This document shows positions 27,701 to 58,192 of a stretch of 64,000 nucleotides of DNA, piece after piece. The notes beneath the pieces were generated by a model. That model saw only the letters and a program-made list of their open reading frames with translations. It had not been told where the DNA came from and did no database searches. How positions within the stretch are numbered: position 1 is the stretch's first letter; each line of letters opens with the position of its first letter. The position numbers and the translations under genes are program-made. The DNA is from a virus (lineage: Duplodnaviria; Caudoviricetes), in the IMG/VR virus record IMGVR_UViG_3300033067_000589, positions 1 through 64,000 of that record. The stretch is one strand, 5' to 3'.

Positions 27701-30700
27701 AACAAAGAAAGGAGAACCTAAAAAAGAGGATACTCCACAAGAACAAGAGGTTCAAGAAGAACTAACCGAAACAGTAGCTGAACTAGAACAAGTAGTAAAA
27801 GAAGCTGGTGATATTATCATAGAGGCAGCAAACAACATAGAACAAATAAGAGGAGAATTAACAAATGAACAGCAATTACCAACAGATAGTACAGAAAATG
27901 AGGGCGGAGTACAATCAGTCCAGACATCTACTACTCCAATATCAGGAACAAGTGAGACTACTCTCCAAGAGAATGTTACCCAAGGAGAAATCACTCCAGA
28001 GGGAGAGGGTACAGCAACTATGGCAACAGATGCAACAGAATCCATCGTGCCAAGTGGAAGTGATGATACTGCAAGCACGCAAGGAGGAGGTACGCAAACG
28101 CAACTTCCGAATGTTAGCGGAGATGTAAAAACACAAGAAGAAAAAGTGAGTGATGCACTTGAAGTATTGAATAGTGAAAAATTCAACGAACTATCAAGTA
28201 GTGATGTTGATATGCCATCACTTGATAATAAGAGTGCGGATAGCCTAGAGTCGCTACTTGCACAAAAGCAAGAACTACTAAAAGGCAATCTATCTCCAGA
28301 AGATAGGCAATTAGTTCAAGACCAAATAGCCGAAATAGAAGGTCAAATCAAACAAAAGGCTATTGAGAATGATGAAATTGTAACCGATACTAAACCAGAG
28401 GTTCAAGCACTTAATGCTTACAATAACATACCAGATGTTGCTATCAAGGTAAAGATTCAAGATACTAAAGGGTTAATTAAGGTAACAAGGGGCAAACTAG
28501 GAGATTCACTTAATGACGAAACAAGAAATGTAATCATAAGTGACATAAAGCAAGTTGGCGACAAAATACAAGTAGTACTGTATGGTGATGAAAATGTAGT
28601 AAACCTTACAAAGAATAGCGAAAACAAGGTTATTGCAAGTAATCAGTTCAACGAGCCTATCACAGTAAAAATGAATGTAGATGAATTTGTGTCTATGTTC
28701 ACCTTTGGGAATAGTAGTGAACTTCAAAGGAGGGCTACACTTGAAAATCTAGGAATAACTGAAAAGCCTCAATCGGAAGGTACGGTTACTATTCCAAAAG
28801 GAACTAATGTGCAAATCGCATACGAACTCGGAAATGAGGTAAAAGGTAAAAGCGCAACACTACAAAAGAGCCTTAAAATAGACTCAAATAATTACAAGTT
28901 AAATACGGATATTGGCTTAAATACAGGGGCTATTTTAAGTATTGCTGATGCAACCGGAAAAATAATTTACCAAAGAGGTGCAACAACTCAAACGCAAGAA
29001 CAAGCTACATCTGCACAACAAGGAAGTACTGATATTCAAAACCAACTCTTGGAAATCAAGAGAAATGGGTCAATGACTTTTGATTCTGGTAGTCAGAAGT
29101 TCTTCAATAGATTTGCTGCTGGTATTGAAAGGATATTCCCCGGAGTAAGCATTGGTGTATTATCTGAACAAGACTGGATTGATTCTGGATTAAGCCCATC
29201 ATCAAGAGGTGCTTTCAATAGAAAGACAGGTCAAGTGATGCTAAGAGAATCTATGTATGATGGAAGTACATTCGTACATGAGGTTGGTCACGCTATAATG
29301 AAAATCATTGGAGATGTAGATACCAACCTTTACAATGCAATGCTTGATGCAGTAGAGGGTACAAAATACGAAGCATACGTAAGGGATAATTATCCTAATC
29401 TAACAACTAGGGAAGAGATACTTTCAGAGGCGATGGGGTATGCTATTCAAGACAAAGGTGTCAAAATGCAATCAAGACCAATGGCTGCATTTAGAGATAT
29501 GATGACCAAGGCATTTAATGCTATCAAGAAATTCATGGGTTATCGTACCAATAAAGATATTGGAGATATGACGCTTGATGATTTTACATCTGAGGTAGCA
29601 GGAATAATGTTTGGCATTAAAGATGCAGACATATTCTTAGATGAGTTTGATTTGACTCAAAATGCAGAACTGAATAATTATTTTGAGACAGAAGGCAATA
29701 CTGACGAATCTAGTATCCAGTACCAGTACTTCAAATTCCAAGCTAATCAACAACAGGTAGCAAAAGGGATAATGAGGGGAAGTGAGTATGCTACATTTTC
29801 AGGTAGAGTTTCGGCTGGTGAAGCTACAATGCAAGAAACGATTGATACATTAAAGTCAATCGTAGATTCGCCAATACTTGAAAGTCAAATGGCAAGCGCA
29901 CTTACTACTGGTAGCGGTAAAGATAAGTTTGATGGATATTCGTTTATTAAGGCAAACCTAAATGACTTTGCTACTGACTACTATAATATCGTAACAAATA
30001 CAGATGCAAAAAATCTAACTCCTTTGCAAAATTCCGATATTGTAGAACTTGGCAACACAATGTTAGAGACGTATGCAGACCAACACAAAAGGTCACATAT
30101 TGAAGTGGTACAAGACGGTAAACAAGTTCAAGTATTTGTAGATCCGGCAAAAGAAGCATCTAATGTAAATAAAAATGTAAGGTCATTCTTTGATGCAGCC
30201 AGAGCTAAAGGAATTATGGCTAAATATACAGCCAAGTTCCTTACTGGAAGTATGTTCTCAAACCTATCCAACATGGATACTGTTGCACAGATGTTAAGTG
30301 GAGACAATGGTATAATGAAAGGTATTCAAGATTTGAGAGTACACATGAATAAGGTTGCAGCTAGAGTTCATAATGGCATGAGGAAAGCTATTTATGATGC
30401 AACAGAAGAATTGACTCAAATTGCAAGAAATAGAGGTAGGGTTTCTAAGTTAAAAGAAGGTAATTTTAAGCCACTTGAAGAAGAGGTAAACGTTTCGTTC
30501 CATAATAACTTTACAGGAGATGCTGAATTAGGAAATAGTAATTTGACACTAGGTCAATTAGCCTACATATACTTAGCGAGACAAACTCAGGTTGATAGTG
30601 ATTTTCAGAGAAGAAATGCAGGACTACTAAAGAGTATTGCGAACATTCAAAAGGAAATAGATAAGGCTAAAAAGATAGGCAATAGCAAGAGAGTATCTTT

Positions 30701-40432: not shown

Positions 40433-41665
40433 ATGCCAATACCAGTTTTAGATAACATTGACTTATCCCAAAATCAAATAGTAAATGTCGTTGTACATAA
40501 AAACGGAGAATTTCCACTATCTCCAACCCCCATATCTGGTCAGATATTTTATAAGACTGGAGCTAACGAAGGCTTCTATTATTATGATGGAACTACTTGG
40601 AGGGGTGTCGGAGATATTACATCAGTAAATGCTACAAATGGAGGTGGTCTTACTGGTGGTGCAAATGCAGGAGATGTAAATCTTGTAGTGAATACTGATA
40701 ATACTACACTAGAAATAAACTCCGCCACTAATCAAGTAATAATTAAAGATGGTGGTGTATCTACTGTAAAGTTAGCAGATAATGCTGTTACTACTGTAAA
40801 GGTAAGTAACAACGCCATTACGCTTGCAAAAATACAACAAGTTCCAACAATGACCTTGGTTGGTAGGGTTACGGCAGGAACAGGAAATGTAGAGCAAGTT
40901 TCTATCATTACAGCAACCGATTTATCAGGGGCCAGTAATTCAAATTTAGCTACATCTCAAGCTGTAAAGACATACATAGATAATAGATTTTCTGGTATAG
41001 GTAGCCTTGTTGATGCTTATGTTCCAGCTACCAATTTTCCAACAAATCCACTAGGAACAAAAAAGGGAGACTACTGGTATGTAACAGGGAGTGGAACGGT
41101 ACAAGGTGTAGTTTTAAATAATGGTGATGTAATTATTGCAAATAAAGATGCAGCGTCTGTAACATCTTCTGCTGATTGGATATTTGTAGAATCGAACAGA
41201 GACCAAGCAACAACAACTGTATTGGGCGTAATTAGGCTTGCAACTCAAGCCGAGGTGAACGCAGGAACGGTGACTAATGCTGCCGTAGCTCCATCAACGC
41301 TTGTAGCGTACATTAATCAAAGGGTTGCTACTGAAACAATAACAGGTGTAGCTGAAATTGCGACAACAGCCGAAGTTACGGCAGGTACAGATAATACAAG
41401 GATAGTAACTCCATTAAAGCTAAAACAATATGTAGATTCAAGTGTACTTGCAAATAACGGAGTTGAGTTTCCGTCTGCATTAGCTAGTAGTGCCGTTATT
41501 ACCCATAACTTAAATACACTAAATTTGAATGTAGACATTTATAGAGTTTCTGATGGTGCTCAAATTTTAACTGGCGTAACTCTTAATACAGTAAATCAAG
41601 TTACAGTAAATTTTGGGTCTCCTCAAGCTATAAATTCATTTAGAATTGTAATAGGAAGAAGATAA
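40433..41665 (+). CDS. Tail fibre protein
   Basis: VTT.KLADNAVTT.K repeats and ATQAEV.AGT / ATTAEV.AGT fibre repeats. Confidence 0.8.
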   Translation: MPIPVLDNIDLSQNQIVNVVVHKNGEFPLSPTPISGQIFYKTGANEGFYYYDGTTWRGVGDITSVNATNGGGLTGGANAGDVNLVVNTDNTTLEINSATNQVIIKDGGVSTVKLADNAVTTVKVSNNAITLAKIQQVPTMTLVGRVTAGTGNVEQVSIITATDLSGASNSNLATSQAVKTYIDNRFSGIGSLVDAYVPATNFPTNPLGTKKGDYWYVTGSGTVQGVVLNNGDVIIANKDAASVTSSADWIFVESNRDQATTTVLGVIRLATQAEVNAGTVTNAAVAPSTLVAYINQRVATETITGVAEIATTAEVTAGTDNTRIVTPLKLKQYVDSSVLANNGVEFPSALASSAVITHNLNTLNLNVDIYRVSDGAQILTGVTLNTVNQVTVNFGSPQAINSFRIVIGRR

Positions 41666-41666
41666 T

Positions 41667-44600
41667 ATGTCAATACCATTATTAGATACATTTAACATTC
41701 CAACTGGAATACTTACTTCAACAACATCTGAGTTACTACTAGCTAGGGATACAGATGGTGATGTTAAGTTATTTAATGGTGCTTCTTATTTGAGAGGTAG
41801 TGGCACTGTAAATTATTTGCCTGTTTACTCTGCAACCAATACACTTGCAAGTAGTATATTACTCCAAACTGGTGGAAATATAGGAATTGGATTAACTACG
41901 AACATTGACCATAAGTTAAAAGTTGGTGGTGGTATTTATGGAGACTACTTACAGGTAAATACAGCTTATAGTAACGGAAATGTTCCGGGTAGGTTTTCTT
42001 GGGATTCTGACCATGATTTAATTGAGCTTGGTCTTAACAATCAATTTTCTGCAAAGTTACCTCAAGATGAAGTTTGGTCATGTATTGCTGCTACTACTAT
42101 AACAAAAGGACAGCTTGTTTACGCTAGTGGAACAGTAGGAAGCTCTGGTAAGATACAAGCAACTCCTTTTATTGCAGATGGCACTATACCAGCAAGATTT
42201 TTAATTGGTGTTGCCACTGAAAACGCAGCACAGGGCGAATCTTTCCATGCAATGAGGTCTGGTATATTAAGAGGCATAAATACCTTTATGTACACAGAAG
42301 GTCAAGATTTGTGGGCATCTATAACAACAATAGGCGGTTACCAAACCACTGCGCCAGTAGCACCTAATCAAAAGTTATCGGTTGCTTTTGTAGTTGCAAG
42401 CCACGCTCAGAACGGAGAATTAGCTATACGTATTAACAATGGATTTGAATTAGGTGGAGCTAGTGATGCACAAATTACATCACCAACTACGAATCAATTA
42501 CTTAGGTATAATAGTAATCGTTGGGAGAATTGGACACATAATTTTGTTAGTTTGTCCGTAAATGGTACAGTAAATAGGATAGCTAAGTTTACAGGTGCTA
42601 CTACTTTAGGAAATAGTTTAATTCAAGACGATGGTACAAATGTATTGATTTTTGGCAATATAGGAATAGGTGCGAGTGCTAATAGTGCTATATCTTTAAA
42701 TTTAAGGAGAGATTTAATAGGTAGTGGTACGTTTGGTATCCTAAACGCATCAGGGGGGTTTGAGAACGGTTCTGATAATATTGGTATAGACAACGAATTT
42801 AGAATAAACTCTAATATAGGTATAAGTAGTTATATTGCATTTAGGTCAAGGAATACAACAATACCCTCTGGGGCAACGAATCAGCTTTATGTTGGATTTC
42901 AAAACTTAAATATAGCCTTTGCTGCTGCTAGTACAGTTTATTCTTTTCAAGGGCAAGTTTCGTCAGGCACAAATCGTTGGAACTTGTACATGGACGGTAC
43001 GGCTATAAACTACCTAAGAGGAGGTTTGCTGCTTAACACTACATCAAATACAGGCGAACAATTAATAGTTAATGGTAACGCAAAAATCACTACAATGGCT
43101 ACCGGTACAAGTACTGATGAAGTTGTAACAGTAACAAGTTCGGGTGTTTTAAATAAAAGAACAGTAACTGCCTTACTTAGTGATATAAATGGTATAACAG
43201 GAACAGGAACTACAAATAGGATAGCTAAGTTTACAGGTGCTACTACTTTAGGAGATAGTTTAATTCAAGATGATGCTAATCGTGTAGGTATAGGTGCGTT
43301 ATTTACTAACACGAGTTTAAATATAGCACTCGGGTTAAGTCAAACTAATAGTATAGGATTACTTCAACGTGGTACGGTTTCTATTGTATCTGGAGGTGAT
43401 GTTATTGGTGTATATAATCAATCAAACATTTCTTCATCTGTAACAAGTGGTAATTATACTCATTTCGCAGCAATACAAGGGAGTGTTACTGGTGCATCTT
43501 TAACAAATCAAACTGGATTCTTAGCAGGATTTAATCTAAATCTAGGAACTAATAATTATGGATTTAGAGGTTTACTTTCATCTGCAACTGGCCGTTGGAA
43601 TTTGTATATGGATGGTACAGCTAGTAATTATTTAGCAGGAAGATTAGTTATTGGTACTTTAGTTGATTTTGGTTTAAATACTGATAATGGTCTAAGATTG
43701 GCTGCATTAAGAAATCACGTAACTCCATCAACCAGCGGAATAAGCATAGATACGGTTGGTGTATTTTCAAACAACGCATCAACTAATGGTAACGCTACTG
43801 TTTCTATATTATCAAGGTCATCAGGAACTCAACGATTAAATTTTGGAAATCAACTTGTAGAAAGTGCATCATTTATATCTTCCGTCTTGGGTGATTTAAG
43901 ATTTGGAACAGGAAGTGGATCGGTAGATGCTGTCGAAAGAATGAGGTTATTAGCAAGTGGATCTTTAGGGTTAGGAACTACATCTCCAATCTCTTTGCTT
44001 GAGTTATCTAATGATTCTAGTGGTAGTATAATAAAACTCACAAGACCAACATTAGCATCAAACAATCTAGGTGTTGGTGCTATTTCATTTGGTGATAGCA
44101 CTGGATATAAAGCAGCAATAACGTCAAGGGTGTCAGCTACAAATATGCAAGACCTTAGATTTCATACTGGAACAGCAAATGCCTCGGTTTATAATGTTTC
44201 AGAGAGGATGAGGATAGAATCTAATGGTAATCTACTCATTGGTCTTACTATTGATGGTGGTCAGTTATTGCAAGTTGGTGGTTCAATAAGACAAACTTCC
44301 GTAACAAATAATCTTTTATTTGCCGATTCAAATGGTGTACTTACAGGATATGCAAATACAGCAAGTATAGCACTAGGCACAGGAACTGGCGGATATATAG
44401 TCAGGTATTCTGGTACTGGTGTAACTCAAAACATCGGCAATTCAGCATTATTTCAATCCGGTAGCAATATAGGGTTAGGTAAAACAAATCCCGGTTATAC
44501 ATTTGATGTGAATGGAGATATTGGGGTGTCAGGTACTTTATCTGTCTATTCTGGTGCATCTAGCGTTAGTATAGTATCTAGTATACAGGGGGTTATATCT

Positions 44601-45044
44601 ACTTATATCAATAACTCTATTAATGTTTTTGGTGATACTAATTCATTTATAATAAGTAATTCCAATTCCTTACCTAGTGGTGGTTCTGGTTATAGGGTAC
44701 AAATAGATTCTGGTACAACAGGAGGTAATGGTCTTTTTGTGAGGGGAAATATTTACTCAACTGCTACGATTACATCATTCTCTGATATTCGACTAAAAAG
44801 TGAACTAGAAAGAATAGAAAATGCCATTGATAAGATAAAGAAAATTAGTGGTTATACCTATTTATTTAATGATAAGAAAACACTGGGCCTTATATCTCAA
44901 GAAGTGAAAAATATAGCACCAGAAGCTATTGAAGAAAAAGGTGGATATATGACACTGAACTATCAAGGCTTCTCTGCTGTAATTGTAGAAGCAATCAAAG
45001 AATTGTCTAGTGAAATTCAAAAATTGAAAGAGAAATGCCAATAA
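41667..45044 (+). CDS. Long tail fibre with C-terminal peptidase S74 intramolecular chaperone
   Basis: G/T/N-rich repeats, ERMR motifs, terminal FSDIRLK...GLISQEV..IAPEA. Confidence 0.88.
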   Translation: MSIPLLDTFNIPTGILTSTTSELLLARDTDGDVKLFNGASYLRGSGTVNYLPVYSATNTLASSILLQTGGNIGIGLTTNIDHKLKVGGGIYGDYLQVNTAYSNGNVPGRFSWDSDHDLIELGLNNQFSAKLPQDEVWSCIAATTITKGQLVYASGTVGSSGKIQATPFIADGTIPARFLIGVATENAAQGESFHAMRSGILRGINTFMYTEGQDLWASITTIGGYQTTAPVAPNQKLSVAFVVASHAQNGELAIRINNGFELGGASDAQITSPTTNQLLRYNSNRWENWTHNFVSLSVNGTVNRIAKFTGATTLGNSLIQDDGTNVLIFGNIGIGASANSAISLNLRRDLIGSGTFGILNASGGFENGSDNIGIDNEFRINSNIGISSYIAFRSRNTTIPSGATNQLYVGFQNLNIAFAAASTVYSFQGQVSSGTNRWNLYMDGTAINYLRGGLLLNTTSNTGEQLIVNGNAKITTMATGTSTDEVVTVTSSGVLNKRTVTALLSDINGITGTGTTNRIAKFTGATTLGDSLIQDDANRVGIGALFTNTSLNIALGLSQTNSIGLLQRGTVSIVSGGDVIGVYNQSNISSSVTSGNYTHFAAIQGSVTGASLTNQTGFLAGFNLNLGTNNYGFRGLLSSATGRWNLYMDGTASNYLAGRLVIGTLVDFGLNTDNGLRLAALRNHVTPSTSGISIDTVGVFSNNASTNGNATVSILSRSSGTQRLNFGNQLVESASFISSVLGDLRFGTGSGSVDAVERMRLLASGSLGLGTTSPISLLELSNDSSGSIIKLTRPTLASNNLGVGAISFGDSTGYKAAITSRVSATNMQDLRFHTGTANASVYNVSERMRIESNGNLLIGLTIDGGQLLQVGGSIRQTSVTNNLLFADSNGVLTGYANTASIALGTGTGGYIVRYSGTGVTQNIGNSALFQSGSNIGLGKTNPGYTFDVNGDIGVSGTLSVYSGASSVSIVSSIQGVISTYINNSINVFGDTNSFIISNSNSLPSGGSGYRVQIDSGTTGGNGLFVRGNIYSTATITSFSDIRLKSELERIENAIDKIKKISGYTYLFNDKKTLGLISQEVKNIAPEAIEEKGGYMTLNYQGFSAVIVEAIKELSSEIQKLKEKCQ
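42572..43275 (+). repeat. 62-bp direct repeat pair (42572-42633 and 43214-43275), 60/62 identical, in frame
   Basis: Both encode NRIAKFTGATTLG(N/D)SLIQDD; spacing 642 nt. Confidence 0.9.
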
Positions 45045-48000
45045 CACAAGCACCAAACGAGATACGCACTATTGATATATTAAGAGAGCTTGGTTATACA
45101 AATCCAAATATTGATATATCTAAAAAGATAGAATTGGATTTAAGATTAAATGGAAGCATTATTGAGGTAAAAGTAGAAGATGTATTTATTCCATTAAATA
45201 TGTGTTCCACTTTTCTTCCAGACCCAAACAAACCGCATGAATTAGAACACTGGTATGGATATGATCATTTAGAGGTTGGTGATTGTTGTGGTGTGTATGA
45301 CCCACTAACAAACTCAAATTTTGGAAAGATACCAACAGGAGATAGGGTTATTGTGAATAGCGACAAATCTGTTACATTTTATGATTTAGGTAGTAACCCT
45401 AGAATCGACCCATATAAGACACCATCTATAAATGGTATGTCGTTAAATCCTGCTGTTTTATCGACAGAATTTAATGGATTCTATGAATTTCCGAATACAA
45501 GATTTTCATCAGAGCCTACTCTTATTTGTAATACAAGTCAAATGATGACGGTGTATGCTGAATCTGAAAATATCCTTACCAATTCATTAACTAAATTATA
45601 TAGAAAGTCTGGCTCTTCCCTAGTTCCATTAACAGGAACGACACAATATAGATACGTAAGAATTGGTAATTATGTGTATGTAGTGGATTTTAATAGTACA
45701 GGTAATGTACTTATTCGAGATAATACTATCTCCTGTGGAAACCCATCTACGCCAGAAGTTAATGATATAGGATTGCCAGCACCTTTTTTTGGTAAGGATT
45801 ACCAAATAGTAAAGGTATCATTTAAGTCAAGTATAACATCTGTTGGTGAGTGGTTCATGTTTTTTGTAGGTAAAGATTCTAACAATAATCAACTAACAGG
45901 AAGTGTACAAAGAACCCAAGCATTAGAAGCTCAATATAGGGAATTTACATTTGATATGTCAAATACTCCTAATTGGAACAATGCCATTATAGAGAATGTT
46001 TATTTTCTATTTCTTCGGTCATCTATGTTTGACTTGTCACTAAAGAACTTTACAATATGTTCAAAAGATGGATTAAAAGCATTTAGTGGAGTTAGATTAG
46101 GTACTGAAATTACAATACCGGAGCAGTGGTTAAGAAATAGTCAATTTCAAGGTTCTGTAAGTGTAACCAATACTGGTAATCAAAACACATCAGGAACAAT
46201 AACTATAAAGGTTTATTTTCCTAGTTCAAATATAACTTACGTAGCAACTACAACAAGTGGGTACACATATAGTTTCGCATCAAACGTACTTACAATTACC
46301 ACTACAAATGTCATACAGATAGGGCAAATTGTTAATATCCCAATCAATATGACTTCTTCCGTAGAGGGAATATACACTCTTTACTCAAAAGTATATGGAG
46401 GTGGTGATTTAGTAAGTACAAACGAAACGAATGGAGCTAGGAGTAAGGATAAACAAATACAAATATTTGCTACCCTCCCATGTGTTCCTATAAATTCAGT
46501 AGAAATACAAGGTCAAAATATAGTTGATTTTGATTCGCTTCAAACATATAATGTATTTTACTCTGGTGGTAATTATGCACCAACAATTCTTTGGTCAGTA
46601 GTTGGTGGAACTATTGTAGGGTCAAATAATGGAAATCAAGTTTCAATAAGGTGGAATCTGAATCCAGCCACATCAGGTAGTGTATCTGTAAGATTAGATA
46701 ATCAATGTACCACAAATCTAAACACAACATTATCGGTAACTAGAAGATCTTATGGAAATGATTATCAAGTAAGAACTTCTGTTAAAAATAACTGTCCAGT
46801 TGGGCAGTTTGGCACAGCATATACAACAGAGGTGCAAGCTAATACCTATTTTGCAAAAACAAAACAAGAAGCAAATGATTTAGCTATTGCTTTTTTAAAC
46901 GCAAATAGCCAAACAAATGCGAATAACTTTGGTACTTGTATTATTGGGTGTAATAATATTACGAATGTAACAATAAGTGGAAGTACTACGGTAGGTTGGC
47001 AAGCATCGGCAGTATATACTGCAACTGTTACAGGGGGCACTGGGGTGAAATACGAATGGAGTGTAACTAATGGTGTAGTTACAGGTGGACAGGGCACGAG
47101 TAGTGCTACTATACTTTTCAATTTTAATGCTTCTGGAGCTTCATTTTCTAATGCAGTGGTAACTGTTCGTGCTTTTCAAGATTGCAATTCTTCTGAAAGA
47201 AGTACTCAAAGGACTGTGAGTCCAATATTATTTACAGCTAGTGACACAAGAACCTTGAGTAAGAATAATTGCCCAACCAACTTCGAGTCAGCATCAACAA
47301 AAGAATATTTTGGACAAGTATCTTCCGCTATAAGTCAGCAAACAGCCAATGAGGCATTAAATATATTATTTGCAACTACGCTTCAAGATTTAGCTAACAC
47401 AGAGCTTACTTGTCGTCAAAGTGTATTCTTTAATGCACAGGCATCAAGAACCTACACAAAGACTTGTCCTAGCGGATATACTCCATCGCAGCAATCATAT
47501 ACTCATATTGTTCCAGCAGGTAAATATAGTGCGCCTACTCAAGCAGGTGCAGATGCTCTAGCTACGGCTGAGTTGGATAGTATTGATGTAAACCAATATA
47601 TTTCATGTGTGTTTACCGGTACGGTTACGGCAAGCGCGTCTATCCGAGAAATTAATGTATTTGCAGGAAATCCAACGGCATCTAACTTTATTAGAGTTGA
47701 TGTGTTTATATCAAATGGTTTAGGTTTTGTGTCAAGTGTAAATATGTTTGATACGTCTAACAATCAAATGGTGGCATCTGGCTCTCCATCATCCAGTTTG
47801 ATACTCACGCACAATGGGGCCGTCTCTGTTTTAACTACACCCGGAACGTCCATATTTAAAGAATATAGGGTGGACATGGGATTGACTGGTGGAGGTACAA
47901 TAAGTGTATTTGCAAGTGCAGTAATAACGAATAAAGATTATTCAAATGGATACGCCATTACCTATGGTTATCAAAATAGAAGAAATCCATTATTAGGGCA

Positions 48001-48445
48001 ACCTAGAAGATTATTGACCATAAGAATATCACCTCCTTTGTACTTTTACGAGCAATCACTTAATTTTTATTTAGGATTTATACGATGGAGAATTGGTACA
48101 TCTGGTGCTTGGAATAATTTTACTAGGATATTGTCAAGTGGCGTAGGTGCTCCAGAATTGACAAATGCGCCTATTGTGTCATTATTGGGAAATACAGGAA
48201 ATTTAGTTGATATTCGTAATGTAACTACGATGGCAACAGATTCTGGGTCTGGACTACCATTAGAATTTGTAAGAATAGTTTTGACAGGAGAGGTGCTGGA
48301 TTCTGATTTACCAACTTATCAAAATATAAATTTGGAGATAAGGTATTTAACTCAAGTGTCATCAAGTTCATCTAAGGCTCACTATACGGCACTTTCACCA
48401 CCATTTATTTACAGCGTAAATTACACAGATATAGATTTAGGATAA
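45035..48445 (+). CDS. Multi-domain adhesin/fibre with Ig/PKD-like and DUF5977-like repeats
   Basis: Two 'Y....GG....W.V.GG...G' PKD-like units and three 'KN.CP......V.A..Y.....Q..A...A' units. Confidence 0.7.
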   Translation: MPITQAPNEIRTIDILRELGYTNPNIDISKKIELDLRLNGSIIEVKVEDVFIPLNMCSTFLPDPNKPHELEHWYGYDHLEVGDCCGVYDPLTNSNFGKIPTGDRVIVNSDKSVTFYDLGSNPRIDPYKTPSINGMSLNPAVLSTEFNGFYEFPNTRFSSEPTLICNTSQMMTVYAESENILTNSLTKLYRKSGSSLVPLTGTTQYRYVRIGNYVYVVDFNSTGNVLIRDNTISCGNPSTPEVNDIGLPAPFFGKDYQIVKVSFKSSITSVGEWFMFFVGKDSNNNQLTGSVQRTQALEAQYREFTFDMSNTPNWNNAIIENVYFLFLRSSMFDLSLKNFTICSKDGLKAFSGVRLGTEITIPEQWLRNSQFQGSVSVTNTGNQNTSGTITIKVYFPSSNITYVATTTSGYTYSFASNVLTITTTNVIQIGQIVNIPINMTSSVEGIYTLYSKVYGGGDLVSTNETNGARSKDKQIQIFATLPCVPINSVEIQGQNIVDFDSLQTYNVFYSGGNYAPTILWSVVGGTIVGSNNGNQVSIRWNLNPATSGSVSVRLDNQCTTNLNTTLSVTRRSYGNDYQVRTSVKNNCPVGQFGTAYTTEVQANTYFAKTKQEANDLAIAFLNANSQTNANNFGTCIIGCNNITNVTISGSTTVGWQASAVYTATVTGGTGVKYEWSVTNGVVTGGQGTSSATILFNFNASGASFSNAVVTVRAFQDCNSSERSTQRTVSPILFTASDTRTLSKNNCPTNFESASTKEYFGQVSSAISQQTANEALNILFATTLQDLANTELTCRQSVFFNAQASRTYTKTCPSGYTPSQQSYTHIVPAGKYSAPTQAGADALATAELDSIDVNQYISCVFTGTVTASASIREINVFAGNPTASNFIRVDVFISNGLGFVSSVNMFDTSNNQMVASGSPSSSLILTHNGAVSVLTTPGTSIFKEYRVDMGLTGGGTISVFASAVITNKDYSNGYAITYGYQNRRNPLLGQPRRLLTIRISPPLYFYEQSLNFYLGFIRWRIGTSGAWNNFTRILSSGVGAPELTNAPIVSLLGNTGNLVDIRNVTTMATDSGSGLPLEFVRIVLTGEVLDSDLPTYQNINLEIRYLTQVSSSSSKAHYTALSPPFIYSVNYTDIDLG

Positions 48446-49481: not shown

Positions 49482-49658
49482 ATGGCAACGAAGAGTAAGG
49501 TAAATGCTGCTGGTAATTATACAAAACCATCTATGAGAAAGTCTTTGTTTAATAAAATAAAGGCAGGAAGTAAAGGTGGAAGGCCGGGGCAATGGTCGGC
49601 TCGTAAGGCTCAAATGTTAGCTAAGGCATACAAATCCAACGGAGGGGGATATAAATGA
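49482..49658 (+). CDS. 58-aa basic protein, DUF5872-like N-terminal half (not in ORF track)
   Basis: VNAAGNYTKP.MRK.LF..IKAGSKGG.PGQWSARKAQMLAK.YK..GGGYK; ATGA-coupled to the next gene. Confidence 0.8.
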   Translation: MATKSKVNAAGNYTKPSMRKSLFNKIKAGSKGGRPGQWSARKAQMLAKAYKSNGGGYK

Positions 49659-49891
49659 AAAAGCCACAAAAAGATTTAGTCAGATGGACAAAGCAAAAAT
49701 GGAGGACTCCTAGCGGTAAACCATCTGGAGAAACAGGAGAGGTTTATGCACCATCTGCCACGATAAAATCATTGAAGTCATCTAGTTCTGGTAGAGCTAA
49801 ATTAGCAAGAGCTACTGCTGTAAAAAGAAAAGCAACCAAGGCAGGAGTTCAACACGCAAGGCATGGATTACATAAAGGTAAAAAGAGATAG
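49655..49891 (+). CDS. Basic protein, DUF5872-like C-terminal half
   Basis: QKDL.RWTKQKWRT.SGKPS.ETGE.Y.P motif. Confidence 0.75.
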   Translation: MKKPQKDLVRWTKQKWRTPSGKPSGETGEVYAPSATIKSLKSSSSGRAKLARATAVKRKATKAGVQHARHGLHKGKKR

Positions 49892-49893
49892 AT

Positions 49894-50211
49894 ATGAGTA
49901 AAGACCCTAAATTAGCAAGAGCAGGTGTTAGTGGTTATAATAAACCAAAGAGAACACCAAGTCACCCTAAGAAAAGTCACGTAGTTGTGGCTAAGGAAGG
50001 CTCAAAGACCAAATTAATTCGCTTCGGACAACAGGGAGTATCTGGGTCTCCAAAGAAAAAAGGCGAGTCGGAAGCGTACAGAAAAAGAAGAGAGAGCTTT
50101 AAAGCAAGACACGCTGCAAACATAAAGAAGGGTAAAATGTCTGCGGCTTATTGGTCGAGCCGTACAAAATGGATTGTAGCCTTCATATTTAACTTATTAA
50201 TTTTTATATAA
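49894..50211 (+). CDS. Basic protein of the widespread 'KSHVV.AK.G...KLIRFG' phage family (DUF6321-like)
   Basis: YNKPKRTP.HPKKSHVV.AK, IRFGQQG, SFKARH, SAAYW. Confidence 0.75.
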   Translation: MSKDPKLARAGVSGYNKPKRTPSHPKKSHVVVAKEGSKTKLIRFGQQGVSGSPKKKGESEAYRKRRESFKARHAANIKKGKMSAAYWSSRTKWIVAFIFNLLIFI

Positions 50212-50212
50212 A

Positions 50213-51157
50213 ATGGCATCAACAGGAACAATAACATTATCAAACGCAGCACTAGGCAATATATCTAGTGTGTCTGTAAAAATAAACGGAGACCCTACCG
50301 AAAGGTACATATCTCTTAATCAACAAACAGGGCTACTTACGTTTAATTCATTAGATGACGGATTTAGATACACGTATGTAATTTTACTTACATTTAATGA
50401 CCAAAGGGTTGCTAGTGCTATTTTTAGCCATGGCTGCGGAGAAGGTACGACCACTCAAGGCACAACAAGTACAACCTCTGGAACAACAACATCTAGTACT
50501 ACTACATCTAGTACAACAAGTACAAGTACAACAGCATCTAGTACTACTACACCAGTCCCAACCACTCCATCTTGTCAAGAACCCACGTCGGTGACTATTC
50601 AGGGTAATTTAACTCCACTTATTAACACTACTGAAACTTACACATTATCAGTAGTAGGAGGGCAAAACAATACTTACGTTTGGACTGTTAGTGGTGGTAC
50701 TATATCTGGCTCATCAACATCAAATACAGTAACAGTAATATGGGGAAACAACACATCTGTAACATCAAGCATATCTGTATCAGTCGGGTGTACGGGAGGA
50801 AGTAACCCTGCAATAGATTTTGATTCATTTGTACTTGGAGTTCCAGAAACAACTCCAGCACCAACAACTCCAGAGCCTACTACTACTCCAATTCCTTTTA
50901 TTCAGCTATCAATTAGTTCACAAGAGTACTTAACATCAAGTGAGGCTTGCGCTGCACTAGAGGTTACCATAAATATTTACAGAAATAACAATGGTGCTAC
51001 AATTACAACAGGAGTTGGTGTATTCCAAGAATCTACACTAACTAATCCTTATGTACCGGCAAACACAGCGTCTTGGTATTTACTCCAAGAGGGCGTAACT
51101 AGGTATGCAGTGCAAATTAATTCATTTGGTACAATATCACAACTTATAGCTTGTTGA
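50213..51157 (+). CDS. Mucin-like Ser/Thr-rich PKD-domain protein
   Basis: 34 of 42 residues S/T at nt 50447-50572; PKD-like domain; second PETTPAPTTPEPTTTP linker. Confidence 0.75.
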   Translation: MASTGTITLSNAALGNISSVSVKINGDPTERYISLNQQTGLLTFNSLDDGFRYTYVILLTFNDQRVASAIFSHGCGEGTTTQGTTSTTSGTTTSSTTTSSTTSTSTTASSTTTPVPTTPSCQEPTSVTIQGNLTPLINTTETYTLSVVGGQNNTYVWTVSGGTISGSSTSNTVTVIWGNNTSVTSSISVSVGCTGGSNPAIDFDSFVLGVPETTPAPTTPEPTTTPIPFIQLSISSQEYLTSSEACAALEVTINIYRNNNGATITTGVGVFQESTLTNPYVPANTASWYLLQEGVTRYAVQINSFGTISQLIAC

Positions 51158-52089
51158 TGAGATATATATGCGCACAACCTGCTACTCCTTATTTTGAGTG
51201 GCAGGTTGAAGTTATGATAAATAACTTTATCGAAAAGGGCGTGAATCCTACTAAGATGGATATACTCGTATCTTACGATACGGAAATTCCTCAAAAGTGG
51301 CTAAAACTTAGAGATGGATATAGGTTTGTAAACTTTCATTTTTACAAAGACGAAAGAGAACATAAACACTATCAGCCATCAATCTACTTTTATTTACTCA
51401 AGAAACACTTTGAGGCAAATCCTTGGTTAAAGAGTGAGACTTTATTCTTACACGATTCAGACATTTTATTTACCAAGAATTACAACTTTTCTTTCGCTAC
51501 TAATCCGGGAGATAAGAAGTGGTATCTATCAAATACTAACTCATATTTGAATTACGATTATATTCAACAGAAGGGTAATTATATCTATCGAGATATGTGT
51601 TCTATTGTGGGTATCGACCCATTAGTTCCACGGTTAATGAAATCCCACTCTGGAGGAGCGCAGTATATAGTCAAGGATACAAATTATGATTTTTGGGATA
51701 TAGTAGAAAAAACAAGTGTAGAGTTGTATGATTATTTCGTACAATCCGAATCGCAATTTAAAAAAGATAATCCAAATGTAGAGCCAATTCAAAAATGGAC
51801 AGCAGGTATGTGGTCTATACTTTGGAACGCATGGCTGGCAGGGCATGAAACGGTGGTGGATAGTCGTATGGATTTCTGTTTTGCAACATCAGATATATCA
51901 GAGGTGGATAGGGTAAATATCTTTCACAATGCAGGAGTAATGCAAAGTCACACTGACCTTTTTAGGAAGACGGCATATACTCAACTTTACCCATACAATA
52001 TAGCACCAGAACCAAGAAGAGATAGTGCTAGTTGGTATTATTGGAATGAAGTTCAAAAGGTATCAAAGAAAACAGTTTTGGCAAATTAG
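51157..52089 (+). CDS. GT-A fold glycosyltransferase resembling GT96/GT95 protein O-glycosyltransferases
   Basis: YFEWQ, LFLHDSDILF (DxD), GGAQYI, KWTAGMW....AW.AG, FHNAG; TGATG coupling to the upstream gene. Confidence 0.7.
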   Translation: MRYICAQPATPYFEWQVEVMINNFIEKGVNPTKMDILVSYDTEIPQKWLKLRDGYRFVNFHFYKDEREHKHYQPSIYFYLLKKHFEANPWLKSETLFLHDSDILFTKNYNFSFATNPGDKKWYLSNTNSYLNYDYIQQKGNYIYRDMCSIVGIDPLVPRLMKSHSGGAQYIVKDTNYDFWDIVEKTSVELYDYFVQSESQFKKDNPNVEPIQKWTAGMWSILWNAWLAGHETVVDSRMDFCFATSDISEVDRVNIFHNAGVMQSHTDLFRKTAYTQLYPYNIAPEPRRDSASWYYWNEVQKVSKKTVLAN

Positions 52090-52103
52090 TTTAGGTTGAG
52101 TGC

Positions 52104-52145
52104 ATATTGGTGGTTTCATTTTGATTCCACCAATATATTTTTTAT
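52104..52145 (+). terminator. Intrinsic terminator closing the glycosyltransferase operon
   Basis: ATATTGGTGG...CCACCAATAT 10-bp stem followed by a T-rich tract. Confidence 0.7.
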
Positions 52146-52176
52146 TTTTATATGACAAAACAAACATTAAACACAC

Positions 52177-52527
52177 ATGAGTTTATTTGGAAATATAGCT
52201 GAATACGCAAAGGCATACGCATCTATTATTAAGAATATGTCAGCATCTGACATCGAAAGTATCATTAAGGCATACGGAGACTCCATCAAGTTTGATATGG
52301 ATAATCTTCCAGAATCAGGAGAGGGTATGACAAAACAGGTTTACTTAGATAGACTTGACAAGTGCTTGAAGTGCCCATTAAAAAATGGAAACACGTGTGA
52401 TCCAACAAGACAAAGGATTCACGTAGATACAGGGCAAATAGTGAATGGTTGTGGATGTAACTTGGTAGTAAAACAAAAATCACCACAGTACGGATGTCCG
52501 GCAGGAGAATGGAAACCAGTAATTTAA
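52177..52527 (+). CDS. Cys-rich small protein (metal-binding, DUF6171-like)
   Basis: RL..C.KCP....C....GCGC......CP.G.W. Confidence 0.6.
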   Translation: MSLFGNIAEYAKAYASIIKNMSASDIESIIKAYGDSIKFDMDNLPESGEGMTKQVYLDRLDKCLKCPLKNGNTCDPTRQRIHVDTGQIVNGCGCNLVVKQKSPQYGCPAGEWKPVI

Positions 52528-53140: not shown

Positions 53141-55576
53141 ATGGCATACAAATCAATATTAGACAGAATTGACTACCTAGAATTTCCAACAATTCTTTGG
53201 TCAGAGGATTACGATAAAGACCCGGAGTTGCTGAATATGCTTGTTCAGCACATTTCAGACTTTATGCTATTTAACAGTAATGTACCTTTTGATGATGCCA
53301 AAAACCCATCAGTTAATATTGATATATTTGAAGGGAATACACAGTCTGGAGAATTAAGAGAAGAGTTTGAAGGGTTACTCTATACTTATGGAGAAGAAGG
53401 CCCAGCCGAGCTTAATGATTATAAATTCCACCGTACAGCATTTGAGGCTATCGAAGGTACACTTATTGGTATGCCACTCAAATTTACAATGCACAATGTA
53501 TCTCAAGCATTTACTGATAAGCAACTCACGAAAATGTCAGAGAAAGCTGCTGCTTATATCCGTAATGCAGCTATTGATGCAATAATGCAACAGACAGGAG
53601 AGAATTTAGAGGATTTAAAAGACCCAGATGCAGAAGCTCCATCAACAATGGAAGAACTATTAGAGGAGCTAGATGGCAGTCAGCAACTAGAATGGGTAGC
53701 TACAAGATTACTACTAAATCTTAGCCGAAGATATAACACAGAAGATGAACTACGCAAAGCAAATAAAGACCATTATGTAAGAAATTGTATGTTTGCTCAT
53801 GTAGATACAGAAAGTGCTACACCACAATTAAAGTACGTATCTCCTGACCAAATAAAATTTATCTCTCCTGTTTCAGTCGAAGACATGGATGATCCAAACA
53901 TTATTGCATGGAGTATAAACAATTACATTTCTTTAGAAAACGCATTGAGGAAATATGGTCAAGATTTAGCTGAGCAAAAAAGCCTTCAAGAGATTATTGA
54001 TATTGTTGTAAGGCTTAGACAAAATGGTAATATCAATGGTGCTTATGACCCAACTAGGCTAGCTACAACCTACCTTACAGAACAGGTACAAGGCGACCAC
54101 GGATATTCTGTTACTATCCCATTTGAATCTACCTTTTTCCCTACATCTGACCTAACAAATCATAATGGGGTTTGTGCTATCCTTGAGCAAAAGATATACT
54201 TCAAAGTAATCAAGCAAAAGAAGTTTATCGTGAAGGTAAACGGAAAAAACCCTACCGCTCAAGAAAGGAAAAGAATGAAGTTTGGTATCACAGTGGAGGG
54301 TATTACATATAAAAGGGTTGATGATAAGTATAAGGCAAAGCCGGGTGAGTATTTAATCAAGAAGCCATACGAAGAGATGTGGGAGGCTACAAGGTTAGCT
54401 CATAATACAATTATTCGTGTTGGCCCATATAAGTACCAAACAAGATACGAGAAAGACCAAAATAGAGTATTCCCTCCGGTTATTGGACTTATATCTCATA
54501 CTGAATCTTTAGTTAGTGTAAGTAAATCATTCTGGAAGATGTACAACTCTTTCATGTACAAGGCTGATGAGCTAACTAAACTAACAGGATCAGAAGATGT
54601 ATTGATGATTGATAGAGCACAATCTAATGGCGATGTGAAATCTATGCTTTACAATGCAAGAAAAGCTGGATTTGTTGAGTTTGATTCTACTCTAGTACAA
54701 GACAGAGAGAATCCACTGGCTAGGTTACACATGAATAAAGTTTCATTCTCCCCATCTGCAAAATCTGTAATGAATTATTTAGAGGCTGCTGATGCCATAA
54801 AAAGAATGTGGGGAGATATAGTAGGTATCAATGCTCACTCTTTGGGTCAGGCATCTCCTTATGACTCAAACGGAAAGGTAAATACACTTATCCAACAGGC
54901 ATCTTTGATTATGCGTAGATACTATTATGAGGACTACACATTTAGAAAAAGAGCTTATCAGAGATACACAGATATTGTCAAGAAATTCTTTGGCTCAAAG
55001 AATCAAAACATATCTATTTATTGGGGGCCACAAGAGAAAGAAATCCTAAGAGTTACCAAAGACTTATCTACATACGACATGGAGGTTTACTTGGATATGG
55101 GTACTAAGTCTATGGAAGATAAGGCGTTCTTGGAAAATATGGCTAGCATGGCACTCTCTTCTGGTGCAATGGATGTAGCTACAATGGCTGAAATTAGACT
55201 GAATGAGAACCCCACAGAAGCGTTGGCTATCATTAAATCTACTGCCAAGAAGATGGAAGAAATGCAAAATCAAAGAGCGCAACAACAACAACAAATTCTT
55301 CAAGAGAAAAATCAAATTGATAAAGCTGCTAAGGTCGATGTTCCACTTCAAAGAACCCAAATCCAGTCAGAAACAGATAGATTTATTGCTGAATTGAAAG
55401 AGCAATCTAAGAGAGCTTCTGATAACTTCAAGGGAGAGATGTATGACATTAAAGAGGCGAATGATAGACAGAAATTGTTATTAAATGCAGAGGCTGATTT
55501 AGAGAAACAATCTCAACTCCAAGAAGAACAAGCTATCATAAATGAATCACAACAACAAGCACCACCTCCAATGTAA
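53141..55576 (+). CDS. Portal protein (crAss-like)
   Basis: 811 aa with Q-rich C-terminal tail, upstream of scaffold and capsid genes; WEAT.......G and GIN...LG motifs. Confidence 0.85.
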   Translation: MAYKSILDRIDYLEFPTILWSEDYDKDPELLNMLVQHISDFMLFNSNVPFDDAKNPSVNIDIFEGNTQSGELREEFEGLLYTYGEEGPAELNDYKFHRTAFEAIEGTLIGMPLKFTMHNVSQAFTDKQLTKMSEKAAAYIRNAAIDAIMQQTGENLEDLKDPDAEAPSTMEELLEELDGSQQLEWVATRLLLNLSRRYNTEDELRKANKDHYVRNCMFAHVDTESATPQLKYVSPDQIKFISPVSVEDMDDPNIIAWSINNYISLENALRKYGQDLAEQKSLQEIIDIVVRLRQNGNINGAYDPTRLATTYLTEQVQGDHGYSVTIPFESTFFPTSDLTNHNGVCAILEQKIYFKVIKQKKFIVKVNGKNPTAQERKRMKFGITVEGITYKRVDDKYKAKPGEYLIKKPYEEMWEATRLAHNTIIRVGPYKYQTRYEKDQNRVFPPVIGLISHTESLVSVSKSFWKMYNSFMYKADELTKLTGSEDVLMIDRAQSNGDVKSMLYNARKAGFVEFDSTLVQDRENPLARLHMNKVSFSPSAKSVMNYLEAADAIKRMWGDIVGINAHSLGQASPYDSNGKVNTLIQQASLIMRRYYYEDYTFRKRAYQRYTDIVKKFFGSKNQNISIYWGPQEKEILRVTKDLSTYDMEVYLDMGTKSMEDKAFLENMASMALSSGAMDVATMAEIRLNENPTEALAIIKSTAKKMEEMQNQRAQQQQQILQEKNQIDKAAKVDVPLQRTQIQSETDRFIAELKEQSKRASDNFKGEMYDIKEANDRQKLLLNAEADLEKQSQLQEEQAIINESQQQAPPPM

Positions 55577-56593: not shown

Positions 56594-58192
56594 ATGACTC
56601 AAATCAAAATCCAAAATATCAAGCGTTCAACAAAGTTGAACTATGATATGAAATTCTTAGGCAACCACTTGCTCCGTGACGAAAAGGCGGTAGCTAGGGT
56701 TATCTATAAATTTGCAGGTCGTGATTCTTTCATTGGATTCCTAGCACAGTACGGTATCTCCACAGGAGAGCAAGGTGCTGCTGGTGTAGCTAATGAAACA
56801 ATCGCTGAATCGCTGGTAAGATGGAGAATTGTAGATAACACCTATGAGGCTTGCCGAATTGTGGATGTTTCTACTGTTCCTCAAACTATTACAGCAAACA
56901 CTCCATTTGAAATTTCACTTAACGAAGGTTGGGTAGATACAGATGGTTTGCTTTTATCAAGTGATGGTAAAACTATCTTCTACGTAAGAGGTAAGAAGCC
57001 AAACTTGGGCATCATTTCTCAAGGTGTTACATACATCTTAGAGTGGCCTTCTCCAGATCCAGCTTCAACAATCACATCTGAGATGTTGCAAGTTGGTAAG
57101 TACATGAACTACATCTCCAACGCAAAAGGCGAGCGTTCATCTACTTCTCAGGAGATTAAAATTGACCATGCAAGTTATGACTTGTTTAACGTAACTCAGG
57201 TAGTTCGTCACAAGATTTCTGCTTCTGGTCATGCTTTAAGTACAGACATCACAAATGAGATTCTTCTTTATGAAGAAGTTGATTCTGCTACGAAAAAAGC
57301 AATCAACCAATATGTACTTCCATTCTCAGGTAAGTTATTACAGAAACACTTAGAGTCTGTATCTAGCTTAATCTACTTTGGTCGTACCAACTTTGATGCT
57401 TACAACCGTGTTGTTCGTACTCTTCGTCAGAATGGTGGAGGAAACGAAATTCCATTAATGGCAGGGGTTAAGCAACAATTTGAATATACTGAGCGTGTGG
57501 GTGAATATAACCCATTTGACTCTCCGGCACGTAACCTTGAGATTGTAGAGTCCATTATCTCTCAGTCGAAAGATTATTACCGTAAAGAAATGGTTGATTT
57601 CATTGTTATCACTGGTGGTGGTGGTCGTGCAGTATTGAAGAAAATCCAAAAAGAGAAAACAAAACAACAAGGCATCTCGCTTCGTGTTTCTGATTCTGCT
57701 GTTGGAAATGGACAAGGCACAATCGCTGCTGGCTTGAGATGGGATGAAACATACCAATCAGATGATGGTACACTAAAAATCATGAACACTCAGTTCTCTA
57801 CGAAACCACGTGGTTTCCAGATTGACAAGAAGGTTCTTGATGGTGTGGCATACGACATTGATGGTTACGATATGTATTTCGTGCCAATCGGTATGTCTGA
57901 AACTGTAAACGGCGCACGTACAGTTCGGATTGCAACTAAAAAGAAAGGTTCACTTAACCGTGGTCTTGTTCTTGGTTCAATCGCTGGTATGTCAGGTTTA
58001 CATGGAAACGGTATGGATATGCCTAACCTTACTGATAGTGACATGAAATTCATCAACTCAGTAGCTAACCAACAGAACTACAAAGTAGCATCTCCTGTTG
58101 ATGGTGAAGAGTTTATGGTTCTTTCTGAGCTAACAGTTATCGTTGAAAACCCAGATGACATCTACTGGTTGAAAGCGAAATTTGACGCATAA
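56594..58192 (+). CDS. Major capsid protein (crAss-like)
   Basis: N.TQ..RHK..SG.A, AG...Q.E, F.V.TG.GG, AG....Y pattern matching crAss major capsid proteins; strongly biased codon usage. Confidence 0.85.
   Translation: MTQIKIQNIKRSTKLNYDMKFLGNHLLRDEKAVARVIYKFAGRDSFIGFLAQYGISTGEQGAAGVANETIAESLVRWRIVDNTYEACRIVDVSTVPQTITANTPFEISLNEGWVDTDGLLLSSDGKTIFYVRGKKPNLGIISQGVTYILEWPSPDPASTITSEMLQVGKYMNYISNAKGERSSTSQEIKIDHASYDLFNVTQVVRHKISASGHALSTDITNEILLYEEVDSATKKAINQYVLPFSGKLLQKHLESVSSLIYFGRTNFDAYNRVVRTLRQNGGGNEIPLMAGVKQQFEYTERVGEYNPFDSPARNLEIVESIISQSKDYYRKEMVDFIVITGGGGRAVLKKIQKEKTKQQGISLRVSDSAVGNGQGTIAAGLRWDETYQSDDGTLKIMNTQFSTKPRGFQIDKKVLDGVAYDIDGYDMYFVPIGMSETVNGARTVRIATKKKGSLNRGLVLGSIAGMSGLHGNGMDMPNLTDSDMKFINSVANQQNYKVASPVDGEEFMVLSELTVIVENPDDIYWLKAKFDA

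Follow-up and report, generated by a model that had tools for sequence, protein, structure and literature searches.

The locus described here raises the question of whether a tailed phage encodes, in two overlapping genes, both a protein O-glycosyltransferase and the protein that it modifies. The locus lies in a window of 64,000 nucleotides (nt), which corresponds to positions 1 to 64,000 of the IMG/VR virus record IMGVR_UViG_3300033067_000589 (Caudoviricetes); the source record has 86,057 bases and a CheckV completeness of 49%. Two open reading frames (ORFs) on the + strand are in question. ORF-A (50213..51157; 314 amino acids) is a Ser/Thr-rich candidate acceptor, and ORF-B (51157..52089; 310 amino acids) is a putative soluble GT-A glycosyltransferase of phrog_4417 and the proposed peptide O-glycosyltransferase. 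We consider it probable that the phrog_4417 enzyme carries out phage-encoded, cytoplasmic O-glycosylation of Ser/Thr tracts in phage structural proteins, with gene neighborhood pointing to ORF-A as the acceptor. An initial annotation, made from the DNA letters alone, had likewise coupled a glycosyltransferase to a mucin-like Ser/Thr protein, and this proposal is now supported by fold, neighborhood, cultured phages, and covariation.

For the gene neighborhood, 80 IMG/VR loci with enzymes 42–58% identical to ORF-B were compared, and a protein was classified as Ser/Thr-rich when at least 55% of the residues in a 40-residue window were Ser or Thr. The gene immediately upstream of the enzyme (position -1) is Ser/Thr-rich in 56 of 78 loci (72%). 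This fraction is 26% at -2, 13% at -3, and zero at +1 to +3. The background among other genes of the same loci is 9/484 (2%), which corresponds to an odds ratio of 134; these loci are phylogenetically related, such that the Fisher p-value overstates their independence. Restricting the count to loci with at least 3 kilobases (kb) upstream leaves 69, of which 57 have a Ser/Thr-rich gene at -1 to -3, and of the 25 clusters that the enzymes form at 70% identity, 20 are positive. With their tracts masked, the upstream proteins sort into 22 groups by BLAST single linkage; Ser/Thr-rich members occur in about a dozen of these groups, and ORF-A is the sole member of its group. Overall, the link between the enzyme and a Ser/Thr-rich upstream gene is strong and position-specific, and it spans many protein groups that are unrelated by BLAST.

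The same association is present in cultured phages. In a phage collection, 77 of 50,697 records carry the enzyme, a base rate of 0.15%. Twelve cultured phages, with enzymes 21–42% identical to ORF-B, were opened, and all 12 have Thr-rich tags, mostly on structural proteins near the enzyme (some nearby rather than adjacent). Their hosts belong to Lactococcus, Enterococcus, Lactobacillus, Staphylococcus, Clostridium, Arcanobacterium, and Chryseobacterium, and the tagged proteins are capsid, tail-tube, Ig-domain, or small unannotated proteins. In Lactococcus phage 1706, a protease/capsid-region protein and the major tail protein both end in T9-10-HHD, and the enzyme gene comes right after the tail gene (L210:468-3975). 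In bIL285, also from Lactococcus, the major tail protein ends in T9-RHD (L211:6129-6737). The same short end tag, nine or ten Thr and then HHD or RHD, is found in both of these phages. Tags are carried by gp45 and the major tail protein gp50 in Enterococcus phage phiFL1A, by the capsid protein, the small decoration-like gp8, and the major tail protein in Lactobacillus phage iLp84, and by gp18 in Clostridium phage phiCTP1. A tail protein and small poly-Thr proteins are tagged in both Staphylococcus phage vB-SscS-F1 and Arcanobacterium phage TPWB06, as is a tail protein in Enterococcus phage Planchet. The remaining examples are two upstream proteins in Lactobacillus phage Iacchus, an annotated Ig-domain protein in Lactobacillus phage 521B, orf51 of LP65, which is annotated as a structural protein from two-dimensional (2-D) analysis and mass spectrometry (MS), and two poly-Thr/Ser proteins in Chryseobacterium phage MA9V-3. 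The initial annotation had held that a lack of linkage between homologues and Ser/Thr-rich ORFs would speak against its proposal; linkage is clearly present in the IMG/VR loci as well as in every cultured phage opened.

Homologous tail-tube proteins provide a comparison between phages with and without the enzyme. For the bIL285 tail-tube protein, 203 homologous records were found, and in all hits below 60% identity the alignment reaches no further than about residue 186–190, just short of the tag. Six homologues that were read, 45–56% identical to the bIL285 protein, end without a poly-Thr tail. The family profile found no enzyme in the five whole-searched records among these six tail-less phages. 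In addition, the list of 77 enzyme-carrying records includes no phage of Streptococcus, Ruminococcus, Geobacillus, or Bacillus, the genera of the tail-less homologues. In these tail-tube homologues, Thr tail and enzyme vary together.

The enzyme itself is a member of a large family. ORF-B matches phrog_4417 (listed as function unknown) with an E-value of 2.1e-61, its residues 1–303 covering positions 1–292 of the 293-position profile, and the family comprises 1930 clusters at 90% identity and 806 representatives at 50% identity. The AlphaFold2 (AF2) model, built with 54 sequences as input, has a predicted local distance difference test score (pLDDT) of 97.4 and consists of a single Rossmann-like alpha/beta/alpha domain with the GT-A fold, matching solved GT-A enzymes. 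A DxD motif (D100-S-D102; 51454..51462, + strand), presumed to be the Mn2+/nucleotide-sugar site, directly follows the strand of residues 95–99. Among the 54 sequences, D102, H257, and K271 are invariant, and conservation reaches at least 90% at D65, D100, Q169, and Q212. The motifs YFEWQ (residues 12–16), LHDSDIL (98–104), GGAQYI (166–171), and KWTAGMW..AWLAG (213–229) were all singled out in the initial annotation, and they do hold invariant or near-invariant residues of the family. No transmembrane segment was found in ORF-B (maximum 19-residue Kyte-Doolittle mean 0.74). In an exhaustive structural search of solved structures with this model, retaining GT-A enzymes rank first, with structural scores of 14.9 for LgtC, 14.8 for glycogenin, 14.7 for the Skp1 alpha-galactosyltransferase, 14.2 for UGGT, 13.9 for WbbM, 13.5 for LARGE1, 13.3 for GlyE of a serine-rich-repeat adhesin pathway, and 11.6 for PBCV-1 A64R. 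Foldseek searches of the PDB and BFVD agree with this ranking, and the family's own members recovered in the BFVD/PDB searches are all labeled 'uncharacterized'. A sequence-profile search of the PDB returned only matches to TAL-effector repeats, which were discarded as spurious.

The affiliation of ORF-B with described glycosyltransferase families is structural rather than sequence-based. ORF-B has no hmmscan hit to the Pfam GT8 model (PF01501) at E ≤ 0.1, and across the whole record no PF01501 match was found at E ≤ 0.01, where the control gave matches in 5 of 14 genomes. H257 and K271 appear to lie where GT8 enzymes have the C-terminal His (third metal ligand) and a diphosphate-contacting Lys. 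The TM-score of ORF-B to solved GT8 structures is approximately 0.5. The HPAT model PF23452 (cut-off 23.9 bits) matches neither ORF-B nor 10 cultured-phage homologues; it weakly matches two of the 54 relatives (best E-value 1.3e-4). Over the record at E ≤ 10, PF23452 gave nothing, but the control was silent too, and this search is hence uninformative on absence. In the ESM Atlas, ORF-B resembles a Chlorophyta cluster in which 99% of members carry PF23452 (TM-score 0.75 by query over 283 residues); both structures are predicted models, and the match comes without an E-value or an alignment. The viral clusters close to ORF-B carry PF23452 in 10% of their members. The ESM Atlas result gives the GT96/GT95-like assignment of the initial annotation partial support as a structural resemblance, and sequence membership is not borne out by PF23452. 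Because this hidden Markov model fails, a membrane anchor is missing, and the link is structural only, ORF-B is filed here as a GT-A, GT8/HPAT-like enzyme of phrog_4417, with GT95/GT96 as a modeled resemblance of unproven membership. ORF-B is best explained as a soluble, metal-dependent GT-A glycosyltransferase, probably retaining and GT8/HPAT-like.

Some long relatives have the enzyme domain fused to GT2, GT6, GT25, DXD sugar-binding, methyltransferase, or radical SAM/SPASM domains. For example, the relative P0121, which is 55% identical to ORF-B, is fused to radical SAM and SPASM domains. These fusion partners are compatible with the building of a glycan on a peptide.

The candidate acceptor differs from its genomic surroundings in composition. 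Ser and Thr account for 34% of ORF-A versus 14% of the window proteome, and among the 64 non-overlapping ORFs of the window and the 40 in the rest of the 86-kb record, ORF-A alone has at least 8/10 Ser/Thr. The proposed cluster of O-glycosylation sites is the tract of residues 76–120 (50438..50572, + strand). The initial annotation correctly described this tract as bracketed by C75 and C121, and its count of 34 Ser/Thr in 42 residues was slightly off: 34 of the 45 residues between the two cysteines are Ser or Thr, and the densest 42-residue window has 33. The other cysteines of ORF-A are at positions 193, 246, and 314. The tract is coded by an imperfect 15-nt tandem repeat (50471-50544), and its sequence differs between close relatives of ORF-A.

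An Ig-like module (residues about 121–207; 50573..50833, + strand) follows the tract. This module matches two modules of a nearby fibre-like protein of 1136 amino acids (45035..48445, + strand) in BLASTP (E-values 6e-8 and 1e-5). Residues 121–196 are predicted to be all-beta (pLDDT 55–70) and have no Pfam hit at E ≤ 0.1, PKD models included; the earlier designation 'PKD-like' thus gives way to 'Ig-like', which the all-beta prediction and the matching fibre-like modules justify. Two of the three relatives of ORF-A (P0272 and P0273) lack residues about 119–212, and therefore lack the module, which makes it an insertion in a longer Ser/Thr-rich linker. Since the tract is repeat-coded and the module is missing in close relatives, this region is a hot spot of length change and domain insertion. 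The second, Pro/Thr-rich linker that had been noted earlier is present as PETTPAPTTPEPTTTPIP (residues about 211–228; 50843..50896, + strand), and the relatives carry a pure Ser/Thr run at this position. The C-terminal (beta) domain (about residues 229–314; 50897..51154, + strand) is conserved among the three relatives. At the other end, residues 1–75 (50213..50437, + strand) form a predicted small beta-sandwich that is possibly the particle-docking part. The ESM Atlas structural neighbors of the N-terminal ~76 residues are Ig-like domains, and these include a 'phage fiber-tail adaptor' cluster (PF23148; TM-scores 0.67/0.61); this likeness and the docking role that it may imply are a lead only. 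Neither a signal peptide nor a transmembrane segment was found in ORF-A (maximum 19-residue Kyte-Doolittle mean 0.91).

The two genes appear to be organized as one unit. The stop codon of ORF-A (TGA, 51155-51157) and the start codon of ORF-B (ATG, 51157) have one A in common, forming the 1-nt overlap TGATG that the initial annotation reported together with the sizes of both ORFs. The ATG at 51157 was chosen over the alternative TTG at 51151 because the N-termini of the homologues read MxYIxAQP. The unit is closed by a terminator-like hairpin with a U-run (52104..52150, + strand), also in agreement with the earlier description. Folding of the hairpin itself (52104-52136) gave a free energy (dG) of -16.3 kcal/mol and a z-score of -4.7, and none of 200 shuffled sequences was equally stable. 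A consensus terminator scan overlooked this hairpin because its loop is longer than the limit of 8 set in the scan.

The portal protein at 53141..55576 (+ strand; phrog_6547, E-value 1.8e-29) places the ORF-A/ORF-B pair inside the structural (late) gene block, between fibre-type genes and portal. Upstream, tail-fibre-type genes occupy 40433-45044, with tail-fibre PHROG matches for the two genes preceding the 1136-residue protein, which itself has three copies of DUF5977 and the two Ig-like modules akin to that of ORF-A. Four small ORFs separate this protein from ORF-A. Directly 5' of ORF-A are two small, very basic, Lys/Arg-rich ORFs (49655-49891 and 49894-50211; 78 and 105 amino acids), for which no Pfam match was found. 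Just 3' of the terminator is a 116-residue ORF with a Cys-rich C-terminal half and a weak phrog_13558 match (52177-52527), followed by a 198-residue ORF before the portal gene; the major head protein is at 56594-58192. Pfam is silent for ORF-A, ORF-B, and most neighboring genes. Elsewhere in the window, an ORF of 2646 amino acids (24753-32693) has neither a PHROG nor a Pfam match. By large terminase, the closest cultured relatives of this phage are distant crAss-like gut phages (22–23% identity), and a crAss-like affiliation that leans on this one match should be taken with caution.

A mechanism may be proposed from these features. ORF-A would be translated just before ORF-B from the same transcript. 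During late infection, ORF-B would draw on a nucleotide-sugar of the host and, in the cytoplasm, add sugars to the hydroxyls of the ORF-A Ser/Thr tract; the Pro/Thr linker may be a further target. The 86-kb record (49% complete) shows no second glycosyltransferase, and the Pfam models for GT2, GT1-type enzymes, and GT8 have no further match in it; the product here would hence be single sugars or a homopolymer. In relatives, the fused GT2, GT6, GT25, methyltransferase, or radical-SAM domains could extend or decorate the glycan. The most likely role of ORF-A is that of an accessory component of the particle, with an Ig-like anchor, a glycosylated mucin-like stalk, the Ig-like module, and an end domain. 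The benefit may be a stalk that is stiff, protease-resistant, and hydrated and that could serve in shielding or adhesion; virion shielding, glycan mimicry, and adhesion, all raised in the initial annotation, are speculation as functions. In this scheme, we infer the acceptor, the sugar, the linkage, the placement of ORF-A in the virion, and the benefit.

In addition to the relatedness of the loci compared, several observations weigh against this reading. Acceptor assignments throughout this family come from gene neighborhood, and ORF-A is a candidate virion protein by gene position and domain sharing. Fourteen of the 80 viral loci have no nearby Ser/Thr-rich gene, although some of these are cut contigs. 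The homologues of ORF-A are limited to three near-identical relatives (86–96% identity); a first search was swamped by low-complexity words, and a search with residues 229–314 gave the same three. Moreover, the AF2 model of the whole ORF-A protein is poor (pLDDT 42, all-beta), too poor for structure searching. In the structural search, from which the initial annotation had expected an indication of the acceptor class, LgtC, an enzyme of lipooligosaccharide (LOS) synthesis, heads the list. It is tied with the protein-glycosylating enzymes glycogenin, Skp1 alpha-galactosyltransferase, UGGT, and GlyE, and therefore the fold alone cannot name the acceptor of ORF-B. A reverse test bears on both sides. 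Among IMG/VR stretches with at least 10 consecutive Thr, the enzyme is immediately downstream in 6 of 58 fetched loci, and 2 of 40 further poly-Thr10 records carry it elsewhere, for a total of 8/46 records searched (about 17%); compared with the base rate of 0.15% in the phage collection, this figure favors a link between tract and enzyme. Against it, most poly-Thr10 viral records (about 83%; L090-L169), including four that are at least 90% complete, have no phrog_4417 enzyme. Thr tracts therefore do not need phrog_4417; in these records, either another enzyme serves the tracts or the tracts are unmodified.

Bacterial genomes add to both sides. The stand-alone bacterial forms, mostly from Bacillota, follow a protein of ~205–225 amino acids with a Ser/Thr-rich run, and they probably lie in prophages. 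Also counting against the proposed role are about 35 chromosomal fused forms (510–830 amino acids; Chitinophagaceae and Sphingobacteriaceae) that have no Ser/Thr-rich neighbor. One of the loci with a fused form, in Chitinophaga niastensis (L232:1562-9107), has a 582-residue fusion of an ORF-B-type domain with a Glyco_transf_7C-like end. This gene is flanked by genes for a radical-SAM protein, two proteins of unknown function, a LanC-like protein, and a GT1-type enzyme, with an S41 peptidase nearby, and the locus looks like a glycosylated-peptide cluster of the type that makes ribosomally synthesized and post-translationally modified peptides (RiPPs) rather than a polysaccharide locus.

This locus and the radical SAM/SPASM fusion of the 55%-identical relative raise the alternative that the substrate is a ribosomal peptide of small size or some other protein outside the virion, with ORF-A being secreted or intracellular. 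The indirect placement of ORF-A in the virion leaves room for such a role. However, the Thr tags of cultured phages are on annotated major capsid and tail proteins and, in one case, on the structural protein annotated by 2-D/MS, while ORF-A has no signal peptide and has a module in common with the neighboring fibre-like protein. We consider this alternative unlikely, even though it is the strongest competitor to glycosylation of phage structural tracts. A somewhat less probable explanation is that the enzyme modifies host envelope glycans, such as lipopolysaccharide/LOS, capsule, or teichoic acids, in serotype conversion or superinfection exclusion, and that its Ser/Thr-rich neighbor is unrelated. 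Many phage glycosyltransferases act in this manner, the LOS galactosyltransferase LgtC is the top solved fold with WbbM also ranking high, and some family members are in prophages. Nevertheless, the ORF-B gene is in the late structural block, co-oriented and overlapping with a structural-type gene, and its product is soluble without a membrane segment. The family is also present in Herelleviridae and other large (85–145 kb) phages, and in the siphophages among them, it lies beside capsid/tail genes. Host-glycan modification also leaves unexplained both the enrichment of Ser/Thr-rich genes at -1 (72% versus 2%) and the covariation of tail and enzyme.

The Ser/Thr tracts may instead be plain, unmodified flexible linkers that adjoin the enzyme through shared gene-block ancestry, with the enzyme having its role elsewhere. 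The conserved synteny among the 80 related loci (42–58% identity) and the many poly-Thr ORFs elsewhere without such an enzyme are in line with this possibility, which is about as improbable as host-glycan modification, or slightly more so. Shared ancestry does not readily account for an association that recurs with BLAST-unrelated acceptor proteins and in phages of two bacterial phyla, or for homologous tail-tube proteins that lack tails in phages without a detected enzyme. Gene order also varies where the association recurs: it is found behind the tail tube, behind the capsid, and, in Herelleviridae, close to the genes for the recombinase and the sigma factor. Finally, phage glycosyltransferases of several folds glycosylate DNA (Pyle et al., 2024, as cited in PMC12619734), and ORF-B could by analogy act on hypermodified bases and thereby help evade restriction. 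This explanation is the least credible of the four: the 86-kb record has no thymidylate-synthase-like (hydroxymethylase) gene, ORF-B is among structural rather than replication genes, the same family adjoins the tail-tube gene in small temperate siphophages, and the association with Ser/Thr tracts would be left unexplained. DNA glycosylation and host-glycan conversion were both rejected on genomic context.

Glycosylation of phage structural Ser/Thr tracts by phrog_4417 enzymes thus remains the preferred reading. The evidence also tilts modestly toward a broader proposal, namely that these enzymes and the Ser/Thr tags encoded with them constitute a widespread, undescribed self-glycosylation system in tailed phages of Bacillota and Bacteroidota, and that the enzymes are the prokaryotic/viral kin of the plant/algal extensin glycosyltransferases (GT95/GT96). 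The full-text literature searched (subscription journals lay outside) gave no account of this enzyme family or of poly-Thr tags in phage structural proteins; in that literature, glycosylation of particles by a phage enzyme has been shown for mycobacteriophages only, where it affects antibody recognition. If the proposal is true, self-glycosylation would be a common trait of phages that infect lactic acid bacteria, enterococci, staphylococci, clostridia, and environmental Bacteroidota, including well-known dairy, enterococcal, and staphylococcal phages, and would depend on another enzyme than in mycobacteriophages and on a Thr/Ser tag that is simple and portable. It would matter for how stable phages are, how they adsorb, and how the immune system recognizes them, in therapy as well as in dairy settings, and for how 'linkers' in phage structural proteins are read. 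It may also show the origin of the plant GT95/GT96 enzymes, and soluble, single-domain, tag-directed enzymes could serve as a compact tool for cytoplasmic O-glycosylation. Cultured phages offer a direct route to a test.

Among known systems, PBCV-1 has atypical N-linked glycans on its capsid protein in a eukaryotic host. The proposed system differs from such chlorovirus (A64R) and giant-virus capsid glycosylation in that the structural score of ORF-B to A64R is below those to GT8 enzymes, and no Ser/Thr tag is involved there. The retaining GT8-type enzymes (LgtC, glycogenin, and Skp1 alpha-galactosyltransferase) and GlyE share the fold, but their sequence identity to ORF-B is 6–10% without a Pfam GT8 match, and W15, Y72, Y130, Y135, and M218 are invariant residues peculiar to the ORF-B family. 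An accessory Sec system and a GtfA/B-type initiating enzyme, as in the pneumococcal serine-rich-repeat pathway of GlyE, are both absent here. The proposed system can also be compared with the plant and algal HPAT (GT95, PF23452) and with SGT1 (GT96), whose families are related (PMC8012813). Both are initiating O-glycosyltransferases on hydroxyl residues of repetitive, extended, proline/hydroxyl-rich tracts. HPATs, with a profile length of 307 versus the 310 residues of ORF-B, have been grouped with GT8 (PMC4738400), whose fold is the nearest to that of ORF-B. However, HPAT and SGT1 are membrane-anchored Golgi enzymes (PMC8012813), whereas ORF-B is soluble and belongs to a phage in a bacterial host without a secretory pathway of that kind, and its presumed acceptor is Thr/Ser rather than hydroxyproline.

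The closest biological parallel is virion glycosylation in mycobacteriophages, for which Che8 gp108-110, Corndog gp38, and Myrna are the examples given in the accounts available (Freeman et al., 2023, via PMC12363180 and PMC12619734). As described in those accounts, phage-encoded cytoplasmic glycosyltransferases of the Che8 type act on the C-terminal ends of the phage's own capsid and tail-tube proteins, an arrangement shown there and proposed here. Glycosyltransferase and methyltransferase domains are also combined in the Che8 type, as in some phrog_4417 fusions. The enzymes belong to different Pfam families, with GT2 and methyltransferase domains in gp108, GT2 in gp109, and a GT25-like domain in gp110, and hhalign comparisons of the ORF-B family profile with gp108 and gp110, the two compared, gave probabilities of 0.22% and 0.07%, respectively. 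Moreover, poly-Thr tags are absent from the capsid and tail proteins of Che8, and the Che8 enzymes are encoded at the far right genome end and not beside an acceptor gene. The hosts differ as well, being Actinomycetota for the Che8 type and Bacteroidota and Bacillota for the proposed phrog_4417 system.

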